A stretch of 60,489 nt of DNA from an uncultured Staphylococcaceae bacterium (lineage in GTDB: Bacteria > Bacillota_I > Bacilli_A > RFN20 > CAG-826), in NCBI GenBank assembly GCA_964639215.1, contig CAZXCV010000007.1:6316-66804 (forward strand), written 5' to 3'. Shown one piece after another: positions 32,478 to 50,205 of the stretch; positions within the stretch are counted from its first letter, which is position 1; each line of letters starts with the position of its first letter. Made by a program: the position numbers and the translations under genes. Below the pieces are notes generated by a model. That model was not told the DNA's origin. It searched no databases and worked only from the letters and a program-made list of their open reading frames with translations.

Positions 32478-33325
32478 AACGTCATCGTAGCTTTGAAGCA
32501 CCGGTCGCCCGATTATATCTTCTAGCGACACCAATTGGAAATCTTGCTGAGGTATCACCCCGGGCTTTAACCATTCTTGAAAGTGTCGATTACATCGCCT
32601 GTGAAGATACGCGCGTCACCGCCAAACTACTCCACCATTTTTCAATTAAAAAACCGCTAATTACTTGTCATGAACATAATGAAGTACTGGCGGCTAACGA
32701 AATCATCGGTTTGTTACGCGATCAAAAAACGGTCGCCTATGTATCTGATGCTGGATATCCGGGTATCTCTGATCCTGGGCGCCGTCTCGTCGCCTTTGCC
32801 CTGGAATCTGATATCAAAGTTAGCGTCATCTCGGGACCGAGCGCTATTTTAAACGCACTAGTCGCCTCGGGTCTCGACACCGAGCACTTTTATTTTCATG
32901 GTTTTCTGCCAAGTAAGGCTAATGCGCGACGTCAAGATTTAGCATCGCTTTATCTACGCCAAGAGACACTTATTTTTTATGAAGCACCCCATCGAATTAT
33001 CGCCACGCTTAAAGCGATGCGCGATCAATTTGGCAACCGCAAAGCTTGTCTTGCGCGTGAATTAACGAAGAAGTTTGAAGAATATATTTATGGCACGCTC
33101 AATGAACTAGCAGAACTCGACGAAGCGACGCTTAAAGGTGAAATGGTTATCGTCGTCAGTGGCAATCAGGATGAATTCCAAGCCAAGATTGGCGATGATG
33201 AAATCGTCCGCTTTATTCAGTCGCTCACCGATGTCGGCATCTCGACAAAAGACGCCATTAAACAGGCGAGTTCCGTTTTAAAAGTTCATAAAAATTATAT
33301 TTATAAATTAATGCACCGCAGTTAA
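32474..33325 (+). CDS. rsmI: 16S rRNA (cytidine1402-2'-O)-methyltransferase
   Basis: It belongs to the tetrapyrrole-methylase-fold RsmI family (LYLLATPIGNL, CEDTR, SDAGYPGISDPG). Confidence 0.9.
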   Translation: MKRHRSFEAPVARLYLLATPIGNLAEVSPRALTILESVDYIACEDTRVTAKLLHHFSIKKPLITCHEHNEVLAANEIIGLLRDQKTVAYVSDAGYPGISDPGRRLVAFALESDIKVSVISGPSAILNALVASGLDTEHFYFHGFLPSKANARRQDLASLYLRQETLIFYEAPHRIIATLKAMRDQFGNRKACLARELTKKFEEYIYGTLNELAELDEATLKGEMVIVVSGNQDEFQAKIGDDEIVRFIQSLTDVGISTKDAIKQASSVLKVHKNYIYKLMHRS

Positions 33326-36300
33326 GTCGTCGCATCAAGTGGAAGCGCGGGGTCATCCTCGCGTTTTTGTCTGAGCGTCGTCACTAAATAAACCGCTGCC
33401 CAGCTCCCACCGAATAAAGCAAAGCCTGCTAGAGAAATCAGTAAACCTTCAGTCAAATATGGCGTCCAATAAGACACGATATATTCGGTTTGTCCTACTT
33501 CTGAGAGGAAGCCAACGAAGCCTCCTTGCGCTTTATAAACTTTCGGGGTGGTCGTAACGCCATCTCCGCTAATTGCTTTGATGGACCAGCCCGGGTCATA
33601 GGGCGTCGTCAACACGATAAAGCGCGCTTCATTGAAATTAGTCGTAAATGTTTGACGATTGGCGCTATAGGCAAAGTTTTCTAAAGGATAAGCGGCTAAA
33701 TCGTCGTGTCGTGTTAGGAAGTTGCCATAAGGCTCGCCATACAACCGTGGATAATCAATATCAAAGGTCGTGACGTTTTTCGGGATAATCATGATTTTAG
33801 CGACTGGTTCGTCGGCGTAAAATCCTCGCATGTGCTTAAAACTCGAAGTAACAAATGAATGGGCATCGCGCACGATGATTTCATTCGCTTGATTAAGTAA
33901 ATACACCGTGGCATGATGTGTTAACCGTAGTTCTAATGCGTAAAAGTAATCTTGATCTTCCGTTCCAAAGTAAGGTCCATCATTGGGTTCAATCATGATG
34001 GCAGAGCGATGGCCAACATAACCAGCAATCTTGCTATTTACATAAATGAGACGACGGCTACAACCGATGTACCCATCGGTGCGTAACGGATCGATATATT
34101 CACCTTGTTCGATTGGACAGGTGATGAGGGTAACGTCGGTGGATTGATACTGAATATTACGATTTGGTCGCGAAATTCTTGCTAAATTAGGCGCGCCACT
34201 CAGCACTTCATCAACATCGGTATTTCGTAAAATCGCACCGCGTAAATACGCTTCTTCATTTGCCAATACTTCAGTCGTCGTATTCACATAAAAATCAGAT
34301 CGTCCCGTTGTCTCATTGTAATTAGTATCAATTAAGGTGTCATAAGAAAAGCCACCCTCGATATAATTCGTATTCATGTAGACTGTGTGTAAATCAGTCG
34401 TATACTCATCCATTTTGATAAAGCCATGCGGTACATTTTGATAAAGAAAGTTTCGTCGTCCATCTTCACCGATTTGACTCGTCCATGAATCATATTCATT
34501 TTTCAACATGTAATATTTGATGTTCAAAAAGAGATCGAGATTATAACGTTTTTCATGATATCCGAGTGACCAACCGTTATGGTTATAATTCATGTGTGAC
34601 CATTCATTGAATTCGGTCGTGTAAAAATTATAGAGCGAATGAAACGCACCAAGACCGTTATAACCAAGGCGCATGTTAATATTGCTGGATTCACCAGCAT
34701 TTAGATTATAAATGCGATAAAAACTTTGATCGTCAGTCGTGATTTTTTTAATAATCGCTCGTTCATCATTGACGATTTCTAAGCCGCTATCATAGTCATT
34801 AACATAGAAAATGAGCCCTTGCATCGACATTGTCATCGCCCCCATGACAATCGCCTCAAGCGTCACGAACCATGTCAGATACTTCGTGAAAATTTGGCGT
34901 CTTGCATGCACGCGCATGATGATATAAGCGGCCACGATGACTGCAAGTTGGTAAATACCAATATAAAGTCGTTCTTCGAGTGCCGAGAAACCATATTTAT
35001 ATTGGAATTGGCTTGCCTGATAAAACGTCAAGGCGGCCATCACCAGCACCACGGCGCCAGACACATCATAATACCAACGTTTAAATTCATGACGCTCCTC
35101 AAAGTTAATCGCGATATAGGCGATTAACGAAACAACCACGAAGATTTGCCACCGTCCGTAATCAACGGTAAAGCCATGGAAAAGTTGATAAAAGAATGGC
35201 GTGAATAACGCAAAACTAAAGAATAGGAGTGGAATCAGATGACTAAATTTCTTTTTGCGCAGCGAATGGATGAGCGAGGGGATAAAAAGCAACATGATCG
35301 GGGTATAAATGAAGAGGCTTGAAATGGTGTTATCATAAGCGCTCGTTCTTAATAACGTGGAGCTGCGGTTACTGACGGTTGGGAAGAAAAAAGTAATCAG
35401 TGGATACAGTTTTTTATAAGGCGATGACCAGGCTGTCACATATTCGTAGACGACATCCCAATTTTTGACTTCAATCACAGCTAAAAGTCGTTCGAGATAA
35501 CTGGCATTGACAGCCCGATCGCTCATGGTTGCCACAATAATCGATGGCCAAAATACAAACGCCGACATCATAATTCCAGTCGCGAACGCGAATACACCAA
35601 GTGGTGCTGTAATCAGACGATCTTTCCAACTCTTCTTAGGCGCAACTTGAAAATAACGGAATAGCGCGTAGATCACGCCGACCATCGCGGCCGTGACGAG
35701 GAAGAAATAATTCGTTAATCCCATGAGGAATAATGCAAAAATTAAAAACCATGGGCGTTTATCTTTGAGTAATTTTTCTATTCCAAGGAAGATAAGGGGG
35801 AAAACGACCGCAACTTCCATAAAGTGATTGAACCACAAGTAATAAGTAATCCATCCGCAATAAGCGTAGACGAGTCCAAATAACCGGGCTGATTTTTCAC
35901 TGACACCAAAGTATCGTAAATATAGCCGCATTGCCAATCCAGCCAGGACGTTTTTGGTAATCATTAAAATCGCCAGCCCTTGTGGCACTAGTGCGCGTGG
36001 AAATAAGATAATCGGAATGAAAAATGGATTGAGGTAATAGTAAAATGAATTGCTGCCAATATTATTAACGCCAAGATATGTGGAACTATCCCATAAGACG
36101 AATTCACCAGTCTTGATGAAATGCCACCAATCGTCATAACCGTTAAAGTAAAACGGAATTTGCTGAAGCACATAATCGCCACTTAATGGAATCGTAAATA
36201 AATTGCTGATGAGGGCGACGCCATAAAAACAGATACCGACCAAGGTTAGATAAATAATATAGCGAAGCATACTATGTTCATCTTTGAGGGCTACCATCAA

Positions 36301-36387
36301 ACGATGGAACGATTTTGAAAACCAAGCGGTAATATGTGCGCTTGTTCGTTTGGTTGATTGTTTAATTTGGCTCATTAAATTGTTCAT
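33322..36387 (-). CDS. YfhO-family large polytopic membrane (glycosyltransferase-like) protein
   Basis: 1021 aa. The N-terminal half has many TM helices, followed by a large extracytoplasmic domain and a C-terminal TM helix. This architecture is typical of the YfhO family. Confidence 0.7.
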   Translation of the reverse strand: MNNLMSQIKQSTKRTSAHITAWFSKSFHRLMVALKDEHSMLRYIIYLTLVGICFYGVALISNLFTIPLSGDYVLQQIPFYFNGYDDWWHFIKTGEFVLWDSSTYLGVNNIGSNSFYYYLNPFFIPIILFPRALVPQGLAILMITKNVLAGLAMRLYLRYFGVSEKSARLFGLVYAYCGWITYYLWFNHFMEVAVVFPLIFLGIEKLLKDKRPWFLIFALFLMGLTNYFFLVTAAMVGVIYALFRYFQVAPKKSWKDRLITAPLGVFAFATGIMMSAFVFWPSIIVATMSDRAVNASYLERLLAVIEVKNWDVVYEYVTAWSSPYKKLYPLITFFFPTVSNRSSTLLRTSAYDNTISSLFIYTPIMLLFIPSLIHSLRKKKFSHLIPLLFFSFALFTPFFYQLFHGFTVDYGRWQIFVVVSLIAYIAINFEERHEFKRWYYDVSGAVVLVMAALTFYQASQFQYKYGFSALEERLYIGIYQLAVIVAAYIIMRVHARRQIFTKYLTWFVTLEAIVMGAMTMSMQGLIFYVNDYDSGLEIVNDERAIIKKITTDDQSFYRIYNLNAGESSNINMRLGYNGLGAFHSLYNFYTTEFNEWSHMNYNHNGWSLGYHEKRYNLDLFLNIKYYMLKNEYDSWTSQIGEDGRRNFLYQNVPHGFIKMDEYTTDLHTVYMNTNYIEGGFSYDTLIDTNYNETTGRSDFYVNTTTEVLANEEAYLRGAILRNTDVDEVLSGAPNLARISRPNRNIQYQSTDVTLITCPIEQGEYIDPLRTDGYIGCSRRLIYVNSKIAGYVGHRSAIMIEPNDGPYFGTEDQDYFYALELRLTHHATVYLLNQANEIIVRDAHSFVTSSFKHMRGFYADEPVAKIMIIPKNVTTFDIDYPRLYGEPYGNFLTRHDDLAAYPLENFAYSANRQTFTTNFNEARFIVLTTPYDPGWSIKAISGDGVTTTPKVYKAQGGFVGFLSEVGQTEYIVSYWTPYLTEGLLISLAGFALFGGSWAAVYLVTTLRQKREDDPALPLDATT

Positions 36388-36423
36388 TTTAATCGAAACA
36401 TATTAATTATAACTAGTTACTAT

Positions 36424-37392
36424 CTATTTTCTAATAGGAGTTTGTTTTTTTCTAAAGACGACCGGCTCGTCTTTTTTACTAGTCGGAGCTTTCATAAATA
36501 CTTTGAGAAATTCAACTGGTAACTTCGCTTTGAAACTGTATCCTTTGCCAGTCTCGGGATGTTTTATTTCCAAAGCGTAAGCATGAAGCCCCAAGCGATT
36601 GATCGGATTGAGTAACGTGTCGTATTTATCGTCTCCGACAACTGGATGACCGATATGGCGCAGTTGCACGCGGATTTGATTTTTTCTTCCTGAATCGATG
36701 TTAACGTCAAGCAGGGCATAATCAGGTGCGCTTTTAATCACTTTATAATGTGTGATTGCTAACTGTCCGTCGCCACTTCGATCAGAAATGTACATTAAGT
36801 GGGTACTTGTTTCCTTCAAGTAGTGTCGTAAAGTATCGACTTCTTTTTTCGGAACACCAGCGACAAGTGCATAATAGCCACGTTTTGTGACTAAATCATT
36901 CCATGCGTCTTGCCATTTCTTACGTAACGAGTCCGACTTTGCAAAAAGTAACACACCTGAAGTATCTTGGTCAATTCGATGAACAACGAAGACGCGGGCT
37001 TTAGGATCGATCCCCCGGAGATAATCCATTACTTGCCGATAAGCAGTCGCGGCTTTTTCTTTATCGGAAGCAATTGAAAGGAGTCCCGCGGGTTTATTAA
37101 TGGCAATCATCTCCTGGTCTTCATAAATAATGTCGATTTTTGGTGATGTGTGACGATCAAGGCGTTGCTTAGCAATCATCACAATGTCCCCAGGATAGAC
37201 AACAAAATCAAATTGAGCAACTGGTGCACCATCGACGGCGACTTGTCGCCTCTTGAGTAACGACTTGATATTGTTCCGAGAAACACCAGGAACATTTTCT
37301 AACAAAAACTCGAGTAACCCGCTTTGCTTTTTTACGCGGATTTGATTGCTGAATTCAGTTTGTGAACGGGAATTATGGTTATTTCTCATCAT
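36424..37392 (-). CDS. RluA-family pseudouridine synthase with N-terminal S4 domain
   Basis: It has the catalytic motif HRIDQDTSGVLLFAK and an S4-like N-terminus. The stop codon is TAG. Confidence 0.85.
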   Translation of the reverse strand: MMRNNHNSRSQTEFSNQIRVKKQSGLLEFLLENVPGVSRNNIKSLLKRRQVAVDGAPVAQFDFVVYPGDIVMIAKQRLDRHTSPKIDIIYEDQEMIAINKPAGLLSIASDKEKAATAYRQVMDYLRGIDPKARVFVVHRIDQDTSGVLLFAKSDSLRKKWQDAWNDLVTKRGYYALVAGVPKKEVDTLRHYLKETSTHLMYISDRSGDGQLAITHYKVIKSAPDYALLDVNIDSGRKNQIRVQLRHIGHPVVGDDKYDTLLNPINRLGLHAYALEIKHPETGKGYSFKAKLPVEFLKVFMKAPTSKKDEPVVFRKKQTPIRK

Positions 37393-38302
37393 TCATTTCC
37401 TTGATAAATCGTCCGTAGCGACGCACGCTTCGATATGGCATGCGCACTAGTTCATCTTTCTTGTGATATTGAGCGGTGGTATACCAGCCATCAAAACGAT
37501 AGCCTGCTTGTGTTGGTAACGTGATATCGCTGATGTCTTCTTGGCCACGGTATCGTACCTCTCGATAGTATTGACCGTCGATATATAGTAACATTGGTCG
37601 CTTAAATGACAAGAAATAAATGATGATAAACATCGATAAAAATGACATGGGAATAATAACTGCTAGCCATGGGAACTCACCGTAGATCGTTAGCCAAACG
37701 GAACTCGTTTCATGGCGAGTTCGATCAATCAGTTGGCCACTACCATCATAATTGGGGGTACGATAAACAAGACGATAGCCATGATAACCATTACGAAGCG
37801 GTCGATAAGTCGTTCCTGTCGCGCCAGCGATATCCCGCCAAACACCCGTTTCATTTAATTTCATTTGCCACTGATATCTGACGTCAGTTTGCATTGCTTC
37901 AAATAGTTCAAACGATAATGTGATTGTTCCGCTTTTGAATTCATCGCCCACACTTGACATGCTTAATTGAGCTTTCATGACACTATCATCTTGATAGTCC
38001 CAACGCGCATATAACATCATTGAGTTCATAACTGGTGTTGAAAAATTCCAGGTTTCTTCAAAATCAAGTCCGAGATACCAACCATTAAGACTAACATTTT
38101 CACGCATAATATACGTCGGGGCACTGATTGGTGCTGGTTCATCAAGCGTGATACTTGAAAGTGATTGGTCATCGTTTACAATCGAAAAGGTAATCGTAAG
38201 CGTCTCCGCCTGAACGCCTAAAACGTTCCTAAATGGAAAAAGACCGAGCCAACATAAAAGCGTCCCGCTGACGAATATTAATTTATGAAACCGTTTAATC
38301 AC
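37379..38302 (-). CDS. single-pass membrane protein with InlB B-repeat (Listeria-Bacteroides repeat)-like modules
   Basis: It has a signal or anchor sequence and GWY-containing repeats (LNGWYLGLDFEETWNFSTPV; GYRFDGWYTTAQY). An Ig-like middle segment and a TM helix at about residues 222-244 are also present. Confidence 0.5.
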   Translation of the reverse strand: MIKRFHKLIFVSGTLLCWLGLFPFRNVLGVQAETLTITFSIVNDDQSLSSITLDEPAPISAPTYIMRENVSLNGWYLGLDFEETWNFSTPVMNSMMLYARWDYQDDSVMKAQLSMSSVGDEFKSGTITLSFELFEAMQTDVRYQWQMKLNETGVWRDIAGATGTTYRPLRNGYHGYRLVYRTPNYDGSGQLIDRTRHETSSVWLTIYGEFPWLAVIIPMSFLSMFIIIYFLSFKRPMLLYIDGQYYREVRYRGQEDISDITLPTQAGYRFDGWYTTAQYHKKDELVRMPYRSVRRYGRFIKEMNDEK

Positions 38303-38972
38303 TGTTAAAACGCTGGACCGTTAAGGAGACGGTGAGGTTTCCATTCCGTTCCCGGATTTCATCAAGCAACATTTTCGGCGAAGCACTTTTCTTTAAGACG
38401 ACAAAAAAAGTTAACTCAAACATCGTGCCAAAATCAGTCGTACGTACACGATTTGTATGATAAGAGAGACATGCTTCTTTGAGTAAATCATCAAATAAAT
38501 TTTCGAAGTTAAGGCTTTCGGGTACAATGATTTTTAACACCATGTGACGATCGCTCGTTTGGCCAAACTTCACCATGTACATTGTAAATAGAGCAATCAT
38601 CATGATGAGTGTGAACACAGCTGAATAGGCAATGTATCCAGTGCCATTAATGACACCAATGACGACTGTTAATAGTATAAAAGCAATGTCCTCGGTTTCT
38701 TTTTGTTGGGTCCGAAATCGCGTTAAGGCAAAGAGTCCACCAACAGCGATGCCACCAGCAAGATTCGTCGACAGCATGATGATGAGCATCGAGACAACGG
38801 GTGGGATAATTACAAGTGTCCATGGAAAATCATGGGTAAAACCGACTTCACGTTTTATGCGCATATAAAATATTGCGAGGACAAGACCAAGTATTAATGA
38901 AACAAGTGTCGCAATCAAAGCGACCATAATAATATCGGCGACATAAAGTTGAATTGGGTCAAATATATTCAT
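38295..38972 (-). CDS. DUF4956-domain membrane protein
   Basis: It has 4-5 TM helices and the family-typical segment GGLFALTRFRTQQKETEDIAFILLTVVIGV, plus a C-terminal soluble domain. It overlaps both neighbours. Confidence 0.7.
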   Translation of the reverse strand: MNIFDPIQLYVADIIMVALIATLVSLILGLVLAIFYMRIKREVGFTHDFPWTLVIIPPVVSMLIIMLSTNLAGGIAVGGLFALTRFRTQQKETEDIAFILLTVVIGVINGTGYIAYSAVFTLIMMIALFTMYMVKFGQTSDRHMVLKIIVPESLNFENLFDDLLKEACLSYHTNRVRTTDFGTMFELTFFVVLKKSASPKMLLDEIRERNGNLTVSLTVQRFNSD

Positions 38973-39696
38973 CTGGATCGAGCTCCTTTTTCATGCGTTT
39001 TTCAAATTCCTTACCGTATTTTGAAAAACTAGTTAAATAAATTTTATACTGGCTTAACGCCTTTGCAAACCATAGTGGCATCGCTTTACCAACTTTGACT
39101 TCCATGAGGCGATAATCATCGTCAATGAGGCGTTGGCCACTTGGACGATAATCGAAGGCAAAGTTTGATCTCCGTGTATAAATATTGTGGTCAATCGTCA
39201 GCCGAAACATCTTCGTTTCACGGTCGATATATGCATGACGTTCATAACTGATAAACACGGATGGGACGATGGCATATACCTGTAAATAATAACCGATTTC
39301 ACCGAGGATTTGACGTGAATAATAATCTTCTTTTATCGGGATATTATGTTCATGAATCAAGCCATTTGCTTCTGCTAAAGTTAATTTGACCCGTCGTTTA
39401 ATACCCACGCCTTGATATTTGCGTTTAATCTCGAGATATACCTCATCGGATGGATCATCACATGTCCCATACTTTCGTAAGCGGAGTTTTTCTTTAAACT
39501 TCGGTTGATCAATGGATCGACGGATTACATCATGATCGGGCGTATCAAAGTAAATCGTTCTCACCGTGTAGGTTTCGCCATTAAGACAAAAAGGATCGAG
39601 ATCCATATGCTTCTCGATAATTGGCAAAATATCTTCTAACTGTGCTTTAGTTAGTAAGAACTTTTTTTCGTAGCGGCGAAAAACATTAATGACCAT
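38959..39696 (-). CDS. VTC-domain protein (triphosphate tunnel metalloenzyme, polyphosphate-polymerase-like)
   Basis: 245 aa. Alternating charged beta-strands are typical of the Vtc4-like tunnel: RYEKKFLL, RTIYFDTP, LRLRKY, YLEIKRK, KRRVKL, SYERHAY, RLTIDHN, LMEVKV. Confidence 0.7.
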   Translation of the reverse strand: MVINVFRRYEKKFLLTKAQLEDILPIIEKHMDLDPFCLNGETYTVRTIYFDTPDHDVIRRSIDQPKFKEKLRLRKYGTCDDPSDEVYLEIKRKYQGVGIKRRVKLTLAEANGLIHEHNIPIKEDYYSRQILGEIGYYLQVYAIVPSVFISYERHAYIDRETKMFRLTIDHNIYTRRSNFAFDYRPSGQRLIDDDYRLMEVKVGKAMPLWFAKALSQYKIYLTSFSKYGKEFEKRMKKELDPDEYI

Positions 39697-39698
39697 AG

Positions 39699-40802
39699 CT
39701 ATAACGTTTGGTTATAAGTGATAAAAGCTTCATTAACGACGTTATTAAAATCACCTTTTGTTGAATTAGCATAATCAACCATAACAATTGGCATTGTGAC
39801 AAGCCACGCTTCAAAATCAGCGTGTTCGATTAAAGCCATATTCGAAGAATTTGCCAAATCTAAGAGTGACCAGCCAAAGATGGTGTCCCACAAATCGCTA
39901 CCAGATAAAACTCCGGTTTTTTGGGCTTGGTTGACCCGGAGGATATCTTGGTAAATAACTGTCGTATTTAAATATTCGTGTTCAGACGTGATTCCTTCTA
40001 ATAACGTGGTAGTGTCTGCGGTGTTATGCCAGAGACTACGAATATTAATGACCGCGGTGTCACCATTGCCACGATTATAGTGATAAGGCAAGGTGACGCT
40101 TGAAGGAGTCTTGGCTAAAATAACAACACCCGCGCTTGTCTGGTTATTTGTGACAATGTCATAAGTTAGATCTCGCAATTGCTCGGTTAGCGGATCGTGG
40201 TGCACAAAATCCAATAGTGACTTTCCCGATACTTGATAACTTCCAAGATAATCAAACAAGTCATCATAAGTGGTACCATCAGGAAAATAGACGTGCTGCA
40301 TGTCAAAAATAATGAATTCGGCTGGATGATTGGCTAAAAAAGGAATCAGTTCATCGAGATAGGTACTTAAGTGGTCCGATAATAACCCGTGCTTGGTCCA
40401 CCAAACACCATCAACATAACTAAGGCGCACATCGAAATAACGAACCCCAGCTTTAAGTAAGGTTGCAGCCCCGCCTTTTTGAGCGCGTGACAATCTGACG
40501 AACACCCCATCAACGATTTTGCCAAGTGTCGCATTACGCAAAAGCGAGCCCTCTGGCTCTCCTGGATCAACTTGCGAGGTTGTCGTGATGTGATGACTAA
40601 ACGCATCGTGAGCGCCGAGCATCGCAATATCAACAATCGAAGCATCACCGTTTGTAACACCATCTTCGATCACATTCGAATAATCTTCTTTACTCGAGGA
40701 GAAAGTAAGACTGAAACCTCCTTTAGCAAACAGTATTAATGGGGCGATAATTAACGCTAAAACAATTAGTGGACGAATGATACGTTTTCGAATGAAGCGC
40801 AT
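39699..40802 (-). CDS. membrane-anchored PLC-like phosphodiesterase (PI-PLC X-domain-like)
   Basis: It has an N-terminal signal anchor and X-box-like motifs GAHDAFSH, GVRYFDVRLS and TKHGLL. The TAG stop lies 2 nt before the VTC gene ATG. Confidence 0.55.
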   Translation of the reverse strand: MRFIRKRIIRPLIVLALIIAPLILFAKGGFSLTFSSSKEDYSNVIEDGVTNGDASIVDIAMLGAHDAFSHHITTTSQVDPGEPEGSLLRNATLGKIVDGVFVRLSRAQKGGAATLLKAGVRYFDVRLSYVDGVWWTKHGLLSDHLSTYLDELIPFLANHPAEFIIFDMQHVYFPDGTTYDDLFDYLGSYQVSGKSLLDFVHHDPLTEQLRDLTYDIVTNNQTSAGVVILAKTPSSVTLPYHYNRGNGDTAVINIRSLWHNTADTTTLLEGITSEHEYLNTTVIYQDILRVNQAQKTGVLSGSDLWDTIFGWSLLDLANSSNMALIEHADFEAWLVTMPIVMVDYANSTKGDFNNVVNEAFITYNQTL

Positions 40803-40952
40803 AAGTAAACTCCTTATTATGAATATATCATATATGTTAATCGTCGCTTTACCGTGATATTTTTACTAAAATATGTATGAATTTTTGAAAAATTGATGCT
40901 TAACCCTTTATTATTAGTAATAGGAATTAAGCTTGTGGAAGGATGATTTTTT

Positions 40953-49386: not shown

Positions 49387-50205
49387 TTAGGATGGTTGCA
49401 TCGCGCCGAAGAGCACAAGCCATGCGAGGATTGATTTAGCAACGAGCGATAACACGATATAAACGCGTTCTCCGTATAAATAGTCTTTCCATTTTCCGAC
49501 TTTGAGATATTGGAGAATCATGTTGATCGGGAAGGTGTTGAAAGCGACGAAATAGGTGCCAACAATCGCCCAAACGAACCATGGGACTTGATCATAATTT
49601 CCTGTACCAAACATATAAATCATAATGACAGCCCAGGGTGTTAAACCAGCGATCGTTCCCCAAACAAATGGACCCCAATCGAGGTGCTTTCGATCTTTGC
49701 CAACATTCAATTGTTCCATCACAAGACCAAACAAATTCATCGCGGCATTAACGACAAATATTAGTATCAGTGAGGCGATGTCTTTAACCCCAAATAACGT
49801 GGAAATTAAGACAATCATGACCGAACTAGATAACGCATATTCAAACCATCGGAATTTGTTAATCCCGACTTTTAAGTCGCGTTCATATATCGCATACGTG
49901 GGTTTTGGGAGCGAAATAAGGGCGTGGGCTAGTGCTGAAATAATGAGGAATGAAGCGACAAGCACACCAAACGGTAAATTGAATAGGAATTGAGAATCGA
50001 CAACCAAAGCTTGGGTCGGAACATCATAACGAATAAAGAATTGAACGATTTGAGGTTGGAATTCGGCAATCTTCTGAATGACTGTTCCCGCGAGAATGAG
50101 CATGATGAGGCCTTGTAATAAGTGCACGGCACCCATGATCACATTGAAGCGACGTAAACGGTCCATCTCAGTCGCCCCTTTAAAGAAGGCAAAGTATTGT
50201 TTCAT
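49387..50205 (-). CDS. heliorhodopsin
   Basis: 272 aa with 7 TM helices. It closely matches my recollection of HeR 48C12: FNVIMGAVHLLQG (conserved His), FRWFEYALSSSVMIVL (counterion Glu), VNAAMNLFG and GERVYIVLSLVAKSILAW (Schiff-base Lys). RBS AAAGGAG. Confidence 0.85.
   Translation of the reverse strand: MKQYFAFFKGATEMDRLRRFNVIMGAVHLLQGLIMLILAGTVIQKIAEFQPQIVQFFIRYDVPTQALVVDSQFLFNLPFGVLVASFLIISALAHALISLPKPTYAIYERDLKVGINKFRWFEYALSSSVMIVLISTLFGVKDIASLILIFVVNAAMNLFGLVMEQLNVGKDRKHLDWGPFVWGTIAGLTPWAVIMIYMFGTGNYDQVPWFVWAIVGTYFVAFNTFPINMILQYLKVGKWKDYLYGERVYIVLSLVAKSILAWLVLFGAMQPS

Follow-up and report, generated by a model that had tools for sequence, protein, structure and literature searches.

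In bacteria, polyphosphate synthesis is ascribed to PPK1 and PPK2, and coupling of synthesis to translocation of the polymer has, to our knowledge, been shown for the yeast VTC complex only. Here, we analyse a bacterial gene pair, encoding a VTC-domain protein and a DUF4956 membrane protein, within a minus-strand run of genes in a 60,489-nt stretch of contig CAZXCV010000007.1 from an uncultured Staphylococcaceae bacterium (the whole stretch is called the window, and coordinates given without a contig or locus label refer to it). The yeast complex is one of the closest described systems: the catalytic tunnel domain of Vtc4/Vtc3/Vtc1 (structures 3g3q, 7ytj, and 8i6v) is homologous to the window VTC protein (profile E-value 1.8e-13) and, as in yeast, the enzyme is tied to a membrane protein, in our case genetically. 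Unlike the yeast complex, the window VTC protein has neither an SPX domain nor a fused membrane domain, and the DUF4956 protein, with 5 predicted helices and a PII/ACT-like domain, has no detectable relation to the three-helix subunits of the Vtc1 type.

The other close systems are bacterial. VTC (there called "PPP") and DUF4956 genes, together with genes for CotH and DUF4832 proteins, were described as a set of accessory genes in Gram-positive pel loci (Whitfield et al., 10.1101/768473). In Streptococcus intermedius, the cotH, VTC, and DUF4956 genes are SIR_1594, SIR_1593, and SIR_1592, and an AlphaFold model of the VTC homologue was reported to have an eight-stranded beta-barrel tunnel fold (10.1101/2024.04.20.589940). 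The NELoc-2 locus of Clostridium perfringens contains genes for a VTC protein, a "tubulin-FtsZ-like" membrane protein, and CotH (PMC2879425). Both the pel loci and NELoc-2 encode the same soluble single-domain VTC protein as the window and, next to it, a membrane protein of several helices that has an ACT-like domain at its C-terminus; the tunnel residues are equally conserved. The window locus belongs to this widespread VTC–DUF4956 module, which has already been described in print. The third gene of the window locus is specific to the lineage, and its CotH is unlinked: in contrast to the Gram-positive pel loci, the window has no pel operon, the CotH gene lies on another contig, and the third gene encodes a single-pass Flg_new protein rather than CotH or DUF4832.

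The VTC–DUF4956 pair and the extent of the cassette

The VTC gene (38959..39696, minus strand) encodes a protein of 245 residues, and the DUF4956 gene (38295..38972, minus strand) one of 225 residues; the 2 reading frames overlap by 14 nt (ATGAATATATTTGA). The pair was followed in a broad sample of 80 VTC loci from other genomes, taken with 10-kb flanks and coming mostly from Clostridia, with some from Bacilli and Treponema, and in a near sample of the 61 nearest related genomes, at the level of the order. DUF4956 is directly downstream of VTC, on the same strand, in 77 of the 80 loci, and at least 2 of the 3 remaining loci have VTC at a contig end. Within the near sample, VTC and DUF4956 are present in the identical set of 15 genomes (Fisher test, 1.4e-14) and adjoin wherever loci were fetched or coordinates were comparable; among the control genomes, each family is present in the same 3. 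The pair also occurs in S. intermedius, Bacteroides thetaiotaomicron, and Corynebacterium glutamicum. VTC and DUF4956 are an obligate pair, and the coupling that a preliminary description of the window had read from its overlapping frames is very strongly conserved.

The third gene (37379..38302, minus strand) starts with GTG, overlaps DUF4956 by 8 nt (GTGATTAA), and encodes a protein of 307 residues in which 2 stretches match the Pfam family Flg_new, the Listeria-Bacteroides repeat (3.6e-14, passing the Pfam cut-off). It is predicted to have a signal peptide, an outward-facing repeat plus conserved beta-rich domain, a membrane helix at approximately residues 209-232, and a tail with the second repeat, which points to a probable single-pass (bitopic) topology. 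This architecture is kept in 4 orthologues. Full-length orthologues are found only in genomes G000, G001, G003, and G014, in each case right after DUF4956. Within the genus, the Flg_new proteins are only 51-54% identical versus 88-90% for DUF4956, so that the protein is fast evolving. It is a lineage-specific third gene of the cassette.

The boundaries of the cassette follow from the gene order in close relatives. G001 and G003 have the same order as the window, in which a gene for a phosphatidylinositol-specific phospholipase C (PI-PLC)-like protein, hereafter PLC-like, is followed by VTC, DUF4956, Flg_new, RluA, and YfhO. In G002 and G004, the order is PLC-like–RluA–YfhO; precisely the 3 genes VTC, DUF4956, and Flg_new are missing, and the PLC-like stop codon is 4 nt from the RluA start. 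In G014, which is from another genus, an ABC gene is followed by VTC–DUF4956–Flg_new–RluA–YfhO, and there is no PLC-like gene. Since G002 and G004 are sisters (100/100 support) nested among the cassette-bearing species in a YfhO tree, with G014 as outgroup, one clean loss of the 3 genes in G002/G004 is the simplest history. Among the 80 VTC loci, a PLC-like homologue is present in 1, and homologues of the Flg_new protein, RluA, and YfhO in 2 each, all of them in the closest relatives. We are highly confident that the co-inherited unit is VTC–DUF4956–Flg_new, and that PLC-like, RluA, and YfhO are not part of it but form the syntenic backbone in which it sits.

The cassette is an accessory trait, because VTC is present in only a quarter of the near sample (15 of 61 genomes). 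Its GC content (approximately 0.39-0.41) is not distinct from that of the flanks, so that base composition gives no sign of a recent foreign origin. An anti-phage role finds no support, as the PADLOC defence models match none of 4 proteins of the run.

The tunnel residues of VTC and the fold of DUF4956

The VTC gene is present once in the source genome of the window (1.11 Mb, 98.8% complete; hereafter, own genome). The protein consists of one domain without a predicted membrane segment and matches Pfam VTC (PF09359) over profile positions 2-230 of 235 (9.6e-44; 150.1 bits versus a cut-off of 23), which bears out the domain call of the preliminary description. A search of the PDB with the single sequence by phmmer gave only noise, and a profile of 24 VTC homologues was needed to reach yeast Vtc4 (3g3q) at the E-value given above. 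Tunnel residues were read from the profile alignment to 3g3q and 8i6v. R8, K12, R72, R74, and E89 of the window protein correspond to Vtc4 R196, K200, R264, R266, and E279, and K91, Y151, R153, and R165 to Vtc4 K281, Y359, R361, and R373; in a weak second alignment segment, E199, K201, S225, and K226 correspond to Vtc4 E426, K428, S457, and K458. All 13 counterparts are invariant in the 24 homologues, and the tunnel Lys, Arg, and Glu residues to which the preliminary description had drawn attention are present. K458 is said, in the 2009 Vtc4 structure paper, to set active Vtc4 apart from inactive Vtc2. Because the catalytic tunnel residues are conserved, the window protein is a candidate Vtc4-type polymerase and, on balance, we lean towards the view that it probably is a polyphosphate polymerase of this type. 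On a separate point, the VTC frame of G034 (C45:5235-5873, locus L099) has an in-frame TAG, and may be a decaying copy or contain a sequencing error.

The second protein of the pair matches Pfam DUF4956 (PF16316; 1.4e-11, 44.8 bits versus a cut-off of 30.6), again as had been proposed. Its AlphaFold model (predicted local distance difference test score, pLDDT, of 79.6) has 5 helices (residues 5-39, 49-67, 71-88, 93-110, and 114-134), followed by a C-terminal ferredoxin-like (PII/ACT-like) domain with beta-alpha-beta-beta-alpha-beta topology. When the model is used in a fold search, only the C-terminal domain finds matches, to the PII-like SbtB and the ACT-like TM1266 (E approximately 0.02). 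In an alignment of 37 sequences, R87 is invariant and lies within an RFR(S/T) motif at residues 85-88; also conserved are D95, G106xxxG110, and, in the C-terminal part, P151/E152 and R207/N210/N212. According to the positive-inside rule, the RFR loop and the C-terminal domain would be on the cytoplasmic side. Profile and fold searches of the PDB detected no channel or transporter relative of DUF4956 and no Vtc chain, and neither support nor exclude a channel role. We think it unlikely that DUF4956 moves the polymer across the membrane.

Polyphosphate background, surface partners, and proposed mechanism

Searches for a PPK1 domain (PF02503) found none, neither in own genome nor among the 61 relatives, and for PPK2 they gave no credible match, the only candidate being 1 sub-threshold match with stop codons. 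For most of these 61 small-genome Bacilli, a polyphosphate synthase is not recognisable. Should one of them make polyphosphate, VTC would be the only recognisable candidate for its synthesis. Given that the search of the order returned neither PPK1 nor PPK2, polyphosphate detected in cassette-bearing members could be assigned to VTC, and G002 and G004, with their clean three-gene loss, provide natural "knock-outs".

The commonest other neighbour of the pair is a Cthe_2159-family protein (PF14262; approximately 560-610 residues), which is present in 37 of the 80 VTC loci and whose gene comes right after DUF4956 in 21 of the 48 cases on the same strand (alignment A5). Examples of this third gene beside VTC–DUF4956 are found at L009:14047-15885 and L089:4190-5980, both on the minus strand, and at L093:8612-10288, L096:5461-7164, and L100:1913-3634, all on the plus strand. 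In the VTC clade nearest to the window, the Cthe_2159 family outnumbers CotH as third gene. A Cthe_2159 gene was not found in own genome, and our literature search returned nothing linking Cthe_2159 to VTC or DUF4956. Two-component regulators come next among the neighbours, at 18 and 14 of the 80 loci.

CotH is found near VTC in a few of the 80 loci, and these counts are lower bounds, as CotH was found solely via Pfam on cluster representatives; a phmmer search of own-genome CotH against the open reading frames of the 80 loci gave no matches. Within the near sample, CotH is present in 13 of the 15 genomes with VTC versus 20 of the 46 without (p = 0.006), and it is kept in G002 and G004. The sole CotH kinase gene of own genome is on contig C20 (1894-2949; L002:1468-2979, minus strand), apart from the VTC gene, and is directly followed by a gene for a cation-efflux (CDF) transporter. 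The encoded protein has a lipoprotein-type signal (…ILTSC) and then a Ser/Thr-rich linker. We also observed that a CotH protein encoded near a VTC–DUF4956 pair (L053:12498-14552, plus strand) has a C-terminal Flg_new_2 repeat, which is of the same superfamily as the Flg_new repeat of the window protein.

We propose, with about an even chance of being right, a combination of the cassette boundaries given above with a membrane-associated polymerase for which the direction of delivery is left open. In this scheme, the soluble VTC protein would be a tunnel enzyme of the Vtc4 type that extends a polyphosphate chain with the gamma-phosphate of ATP. The obligate pairing suggests that it is bound to DUF4956 and works on the membrane's inner face, and the predicted topology of DUF4956 would have both the RFR loop and the PII/ACT-like domain facing the cytoplasm. 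The product may then be passed outward to surface partners or kept at the membrane. Judging from gene neighbourhoods, the surface partner would here be the Flg_new protein and, in relatives, mostly a secreted Cthe_2159-family protein, with a CotH kinase usually encoded somewhere in the genome. If correct, a yeast-type polymerase with a dedicated membrane protein would constitute a third bacterial route to polyphosphate besides PPK1 and PPK2, and a possible means of delivering polyphosphate to the membrane or beyond it. To this the locus adds clean comparative boundaries and a genetic background in which no PPK was found.

Several observations weigh against the proposal. Bacteria normally hold polyphosphate in the cytoplasm, for which a translocase is not required. 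DUF4956 has no similarity to Vtc1, either by sequence profile against the PDB or by a fold search with the model, and none of its conserved charges is in the predicted membrane core, all of them being cytoplasmic in the predicted topology. The loss of the cassette in 2 congeners makes it dispensable. Bacterial VTC and DUF4956 appear in the literature that we searched only as gene-neighbourhood mentions, without biochemistry, and the preliminary description had already called the pairing biochemically uncharacterised. Finally, in S. intermedius, Pel production and aggregation persist upon deletion of VTC, DUF4956, or CotH, with a small decrease only in the DUF4956 mutant (10.1101/2024.04.20.589940).

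Part of this evidence fits an alternative that we consider somewhat unlikely, namely that polyphosphate made by VTC stays in the cytoplasm, that DUF4956 is only an anchor or a regulator sensing a nucleotide or metabolite, and that the surface neighbours are merely co-regulated. In its C-terminal domain, DUF4956 is similar to the PII-like nucleotide sensor SbtB and to ACT-like proteins, and the protein has neither a Vtc1-like channel signature nor a conserved charge in the membrane core; with no PPK1 or PPK2 found in the order, intracellular polyphosphate would need VTC. That the polymer may stay in the cytoplasm was also suggested in the S. intermedius study (10.1101/2024.04.20.589940). However, a regulator alone fails to explain the perfect co-occurrence and the fixed gene order across phyla. 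Moreover, the recurring third genes encode exported or surface proteins, as seen from the frequency of Cthe_2159 directly after DUF4956, the enrichment of CotH, and the Flg_new protein, and the patchy spread of the cassette over the near sample is unlike that of a core phosphate store.

The analogy with yeast VTC and the exported partner proteins speak for export of the polymer, which on the whole we consider unlikely. The fullest form of this idea is that the cassette is a split bacterial counterpart of yeast VTC, in which the soluble polymerase docks on an oligomer of DUF4956 and threads polyphosphate to the surface, where variable outward-facing proteins bind or use the polymer, namely Flg_new here, Cthe_2159 in most relatives, and CotH in others; this we regard as improbable.

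VTC might also be a different triphosphate-tunnel enzyme, such as a tri- or polyphosphatase, or a transferase for which DUF4956 presents a lipid or glycan as phosphate acceptor. The triphosphate-tunnel superfamily spans hydrolases, cyclases, and RNA triphosphatases on the same fold (PMC4641920), and the window protein has Glu at position 10 where Vtc4 has Thr, giving an R-x-E-x-K start that is nearer to the classical tunnel motif. Against this stand the invariant counterparts of S457 and K458 and the assignment by Pfam to VTC and not to CYTH, and we consider a non-polymerase function distinctly improbable.

The PI-PLC-like gene and the flanks of the cassette

The cassette is part of a run of 6 co-oriented open reading frames on the minus strand. 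The PLC-like gene (39699..40802), encoding 367 residues with an N-terminal signal or anchor helix, has a GGAG ribosome-binding site ahead of its start. VTC starts 2 nt past the PLC-like stop codon (TAG-CT-ATG; TAGCTATG), with no obvious ribosome-binding site of its own. At the other end, Flg_new overlaps the RluA-family pseudouridine synthase gene (36424..37392, minus strand, 322 residues) by 14 nt (ATGATGAGAAATAA), and a gap of 36 nt separates RluA from the gene for the polytopic YfhO-family membrane protein (33322..36387, minus strand, 1021 residues). All of these positions, overlaps, and gaps are as listed in the preliminary description. The tight packing, although real, is not a distinguishing feature: in 2 congeners, only 4 nt separate the end of the PLC-like gene from RluA. 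In the window, the packing reflects the compaction of a 1.1-Mb genome and not a shared function.

The sole sizeable non-coding gap upstream of the run is the 150-nt intergenic region (40803..40952) between the PLC-like gene and a divergent ABC-transporter operon, which is likely the promoter region of the run. A scan of the region for promoters and terminators gave matches that were no richer than in shuffled sequence, 40803..40952 included, and is therefore uninformative on operon structure. A promoter-like TAGAAA-16-TATAAT is present at 36406-36433 (minus strand), at the end of RluA and ahead of YfhO; YfhO may have its own promoter there, at a type of site that is not above the shuffled frequency.

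For the PLC-like protein, neither Pfam nor NCBIfam returns a family up to E = 10, PI-PLC-X included, and phmmer gives only a weak match to Staphylococcus aureus PI-PLC (E 5e-4, residues 106-183). By contrast, the 23 best-scoring PDB structures for its AlphaFold model (pLDDT 93.5) are bacterial PI-PLCs without exception (Foldseek E 6e-12 to 1e-7), with target-normalised template modelling (TM) scores of 0.64-0.72 (0.71 for the best match) and 13-17% identity. With the PI-PLCs of S. aureus (3v18), Bacillus cereus (1ptd), and Listeria (1aod) it shares the TIM-barrel fold (Foldseek probability 1.0, TM-score approximately 0.7) and an N-terminal export signal, and its FDxR and HG motifs align with the catalytic Arg and His in the weak phmmer match; unlike those enzymes, it is approximately 60 residues longer, in addition to the low identity and the missing Pfam match.

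In an alignment of 30 of the approximately 190 PLC-like homologues, no variation is seen at H65/D66 (in a GAHD motif), R121, R126, H138, or D343. Of these, R126 and H138 are placed by the weak phmmer match at the FDIR and HHG motifs of S. aureus PI-PLC. Taking the catalytic set of B. cereus PI-PLC to be H32, H82, and R69, H65 would be the counterpart of H32. Judged by modelled fold and not by profile hidden Markov models, the first gene of the run encodes a PLC-like phosphodiesterase with an N-terminal export or anchor helix. The earlier call of such an enzyme thus stands as to its fold and falls as to profile support. The analysis defines a family of PI-PLC fold, with approximately 190 proteins that are all annotated as hypothetical, for which there is no Pfam model.

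The preliminary description had combined PLC-like, VTC, DUF4956, the repeat protein, and possibly YfhO into one module that would synthesise, export, and process a phosphate-containing polymer of the envelope. In favour of this, the genes share one orientation and overlap or lie 2 nt apart, the start of VTC lacks a clear ribosome-binding site, the PLC-like protein is predicted to be an extracytoplasmic protein with a phosphodiesterase fold, and there is a weak phyletic association of PLC-like with VTC (5 of the 15 genomes with VTC versus 4 of the 46 without, p = 0.03). However, this association weakens to p = 0.07 when the genus is counted as one. Full-length PLC-like homologues are found in 9 of the 61 genomes and are beside VTC in only 3 of these 9, all from one genus; in G041 and G047, PLC-like and VTC are on different contigs, and G002, G004, G008, and G046 have PLC-like without any VTC match. 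Distant PLC-like homologues adjoin unrelated genes, for an MFS transporter, HlyIII, ABC/FtsX, CTP synthase, an SNF2 helicase, and heliorhodopsin, and have no common partner. Together with the PLC-like–RluA–YfhO order in G002/G004, the cassette without PLC-like in G014, and the absence of PLC-like and YfhO from at least 78 of the 80 other VTC loci, the comparative data largely refute the full module, which we consider highly improbable: its core pair holds, and its extension to PLC-like and YfhO does not. The PLC-like gene would be a candidate co-transcribed neighbour outside the cassette.

The RluA and YfhO assignments are confirmed by Pfam. The RluA-type protein matches PseudoU_synth_2 (3.9e-28, passing the Pfam cut-off) and reaches 174 bits against TIGR00005, under the cut-off of 192.7; the YfhO protein matches YfhO (PF09586) with 7.6e-60 and 203.6 bits versus a cut-off of 28.5. 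RluA directly follows the PLC-like gene in G002, G004, and G008 and is a housekeeping neighbour in the syntenic backbone. YfhO is present in congeners both with and without the cassette, and its link to VTC was not seen outside close relatives among the 80 loci. As a minor observation on the PLC-like gene, in G008 a heliorhodopsin gene (L087:5263-6057, plus strand) is immediately upstream of it, and the window has a heliorhodopsin gene at 49387-50205, approximately 9 kb from the PLC-like gene.

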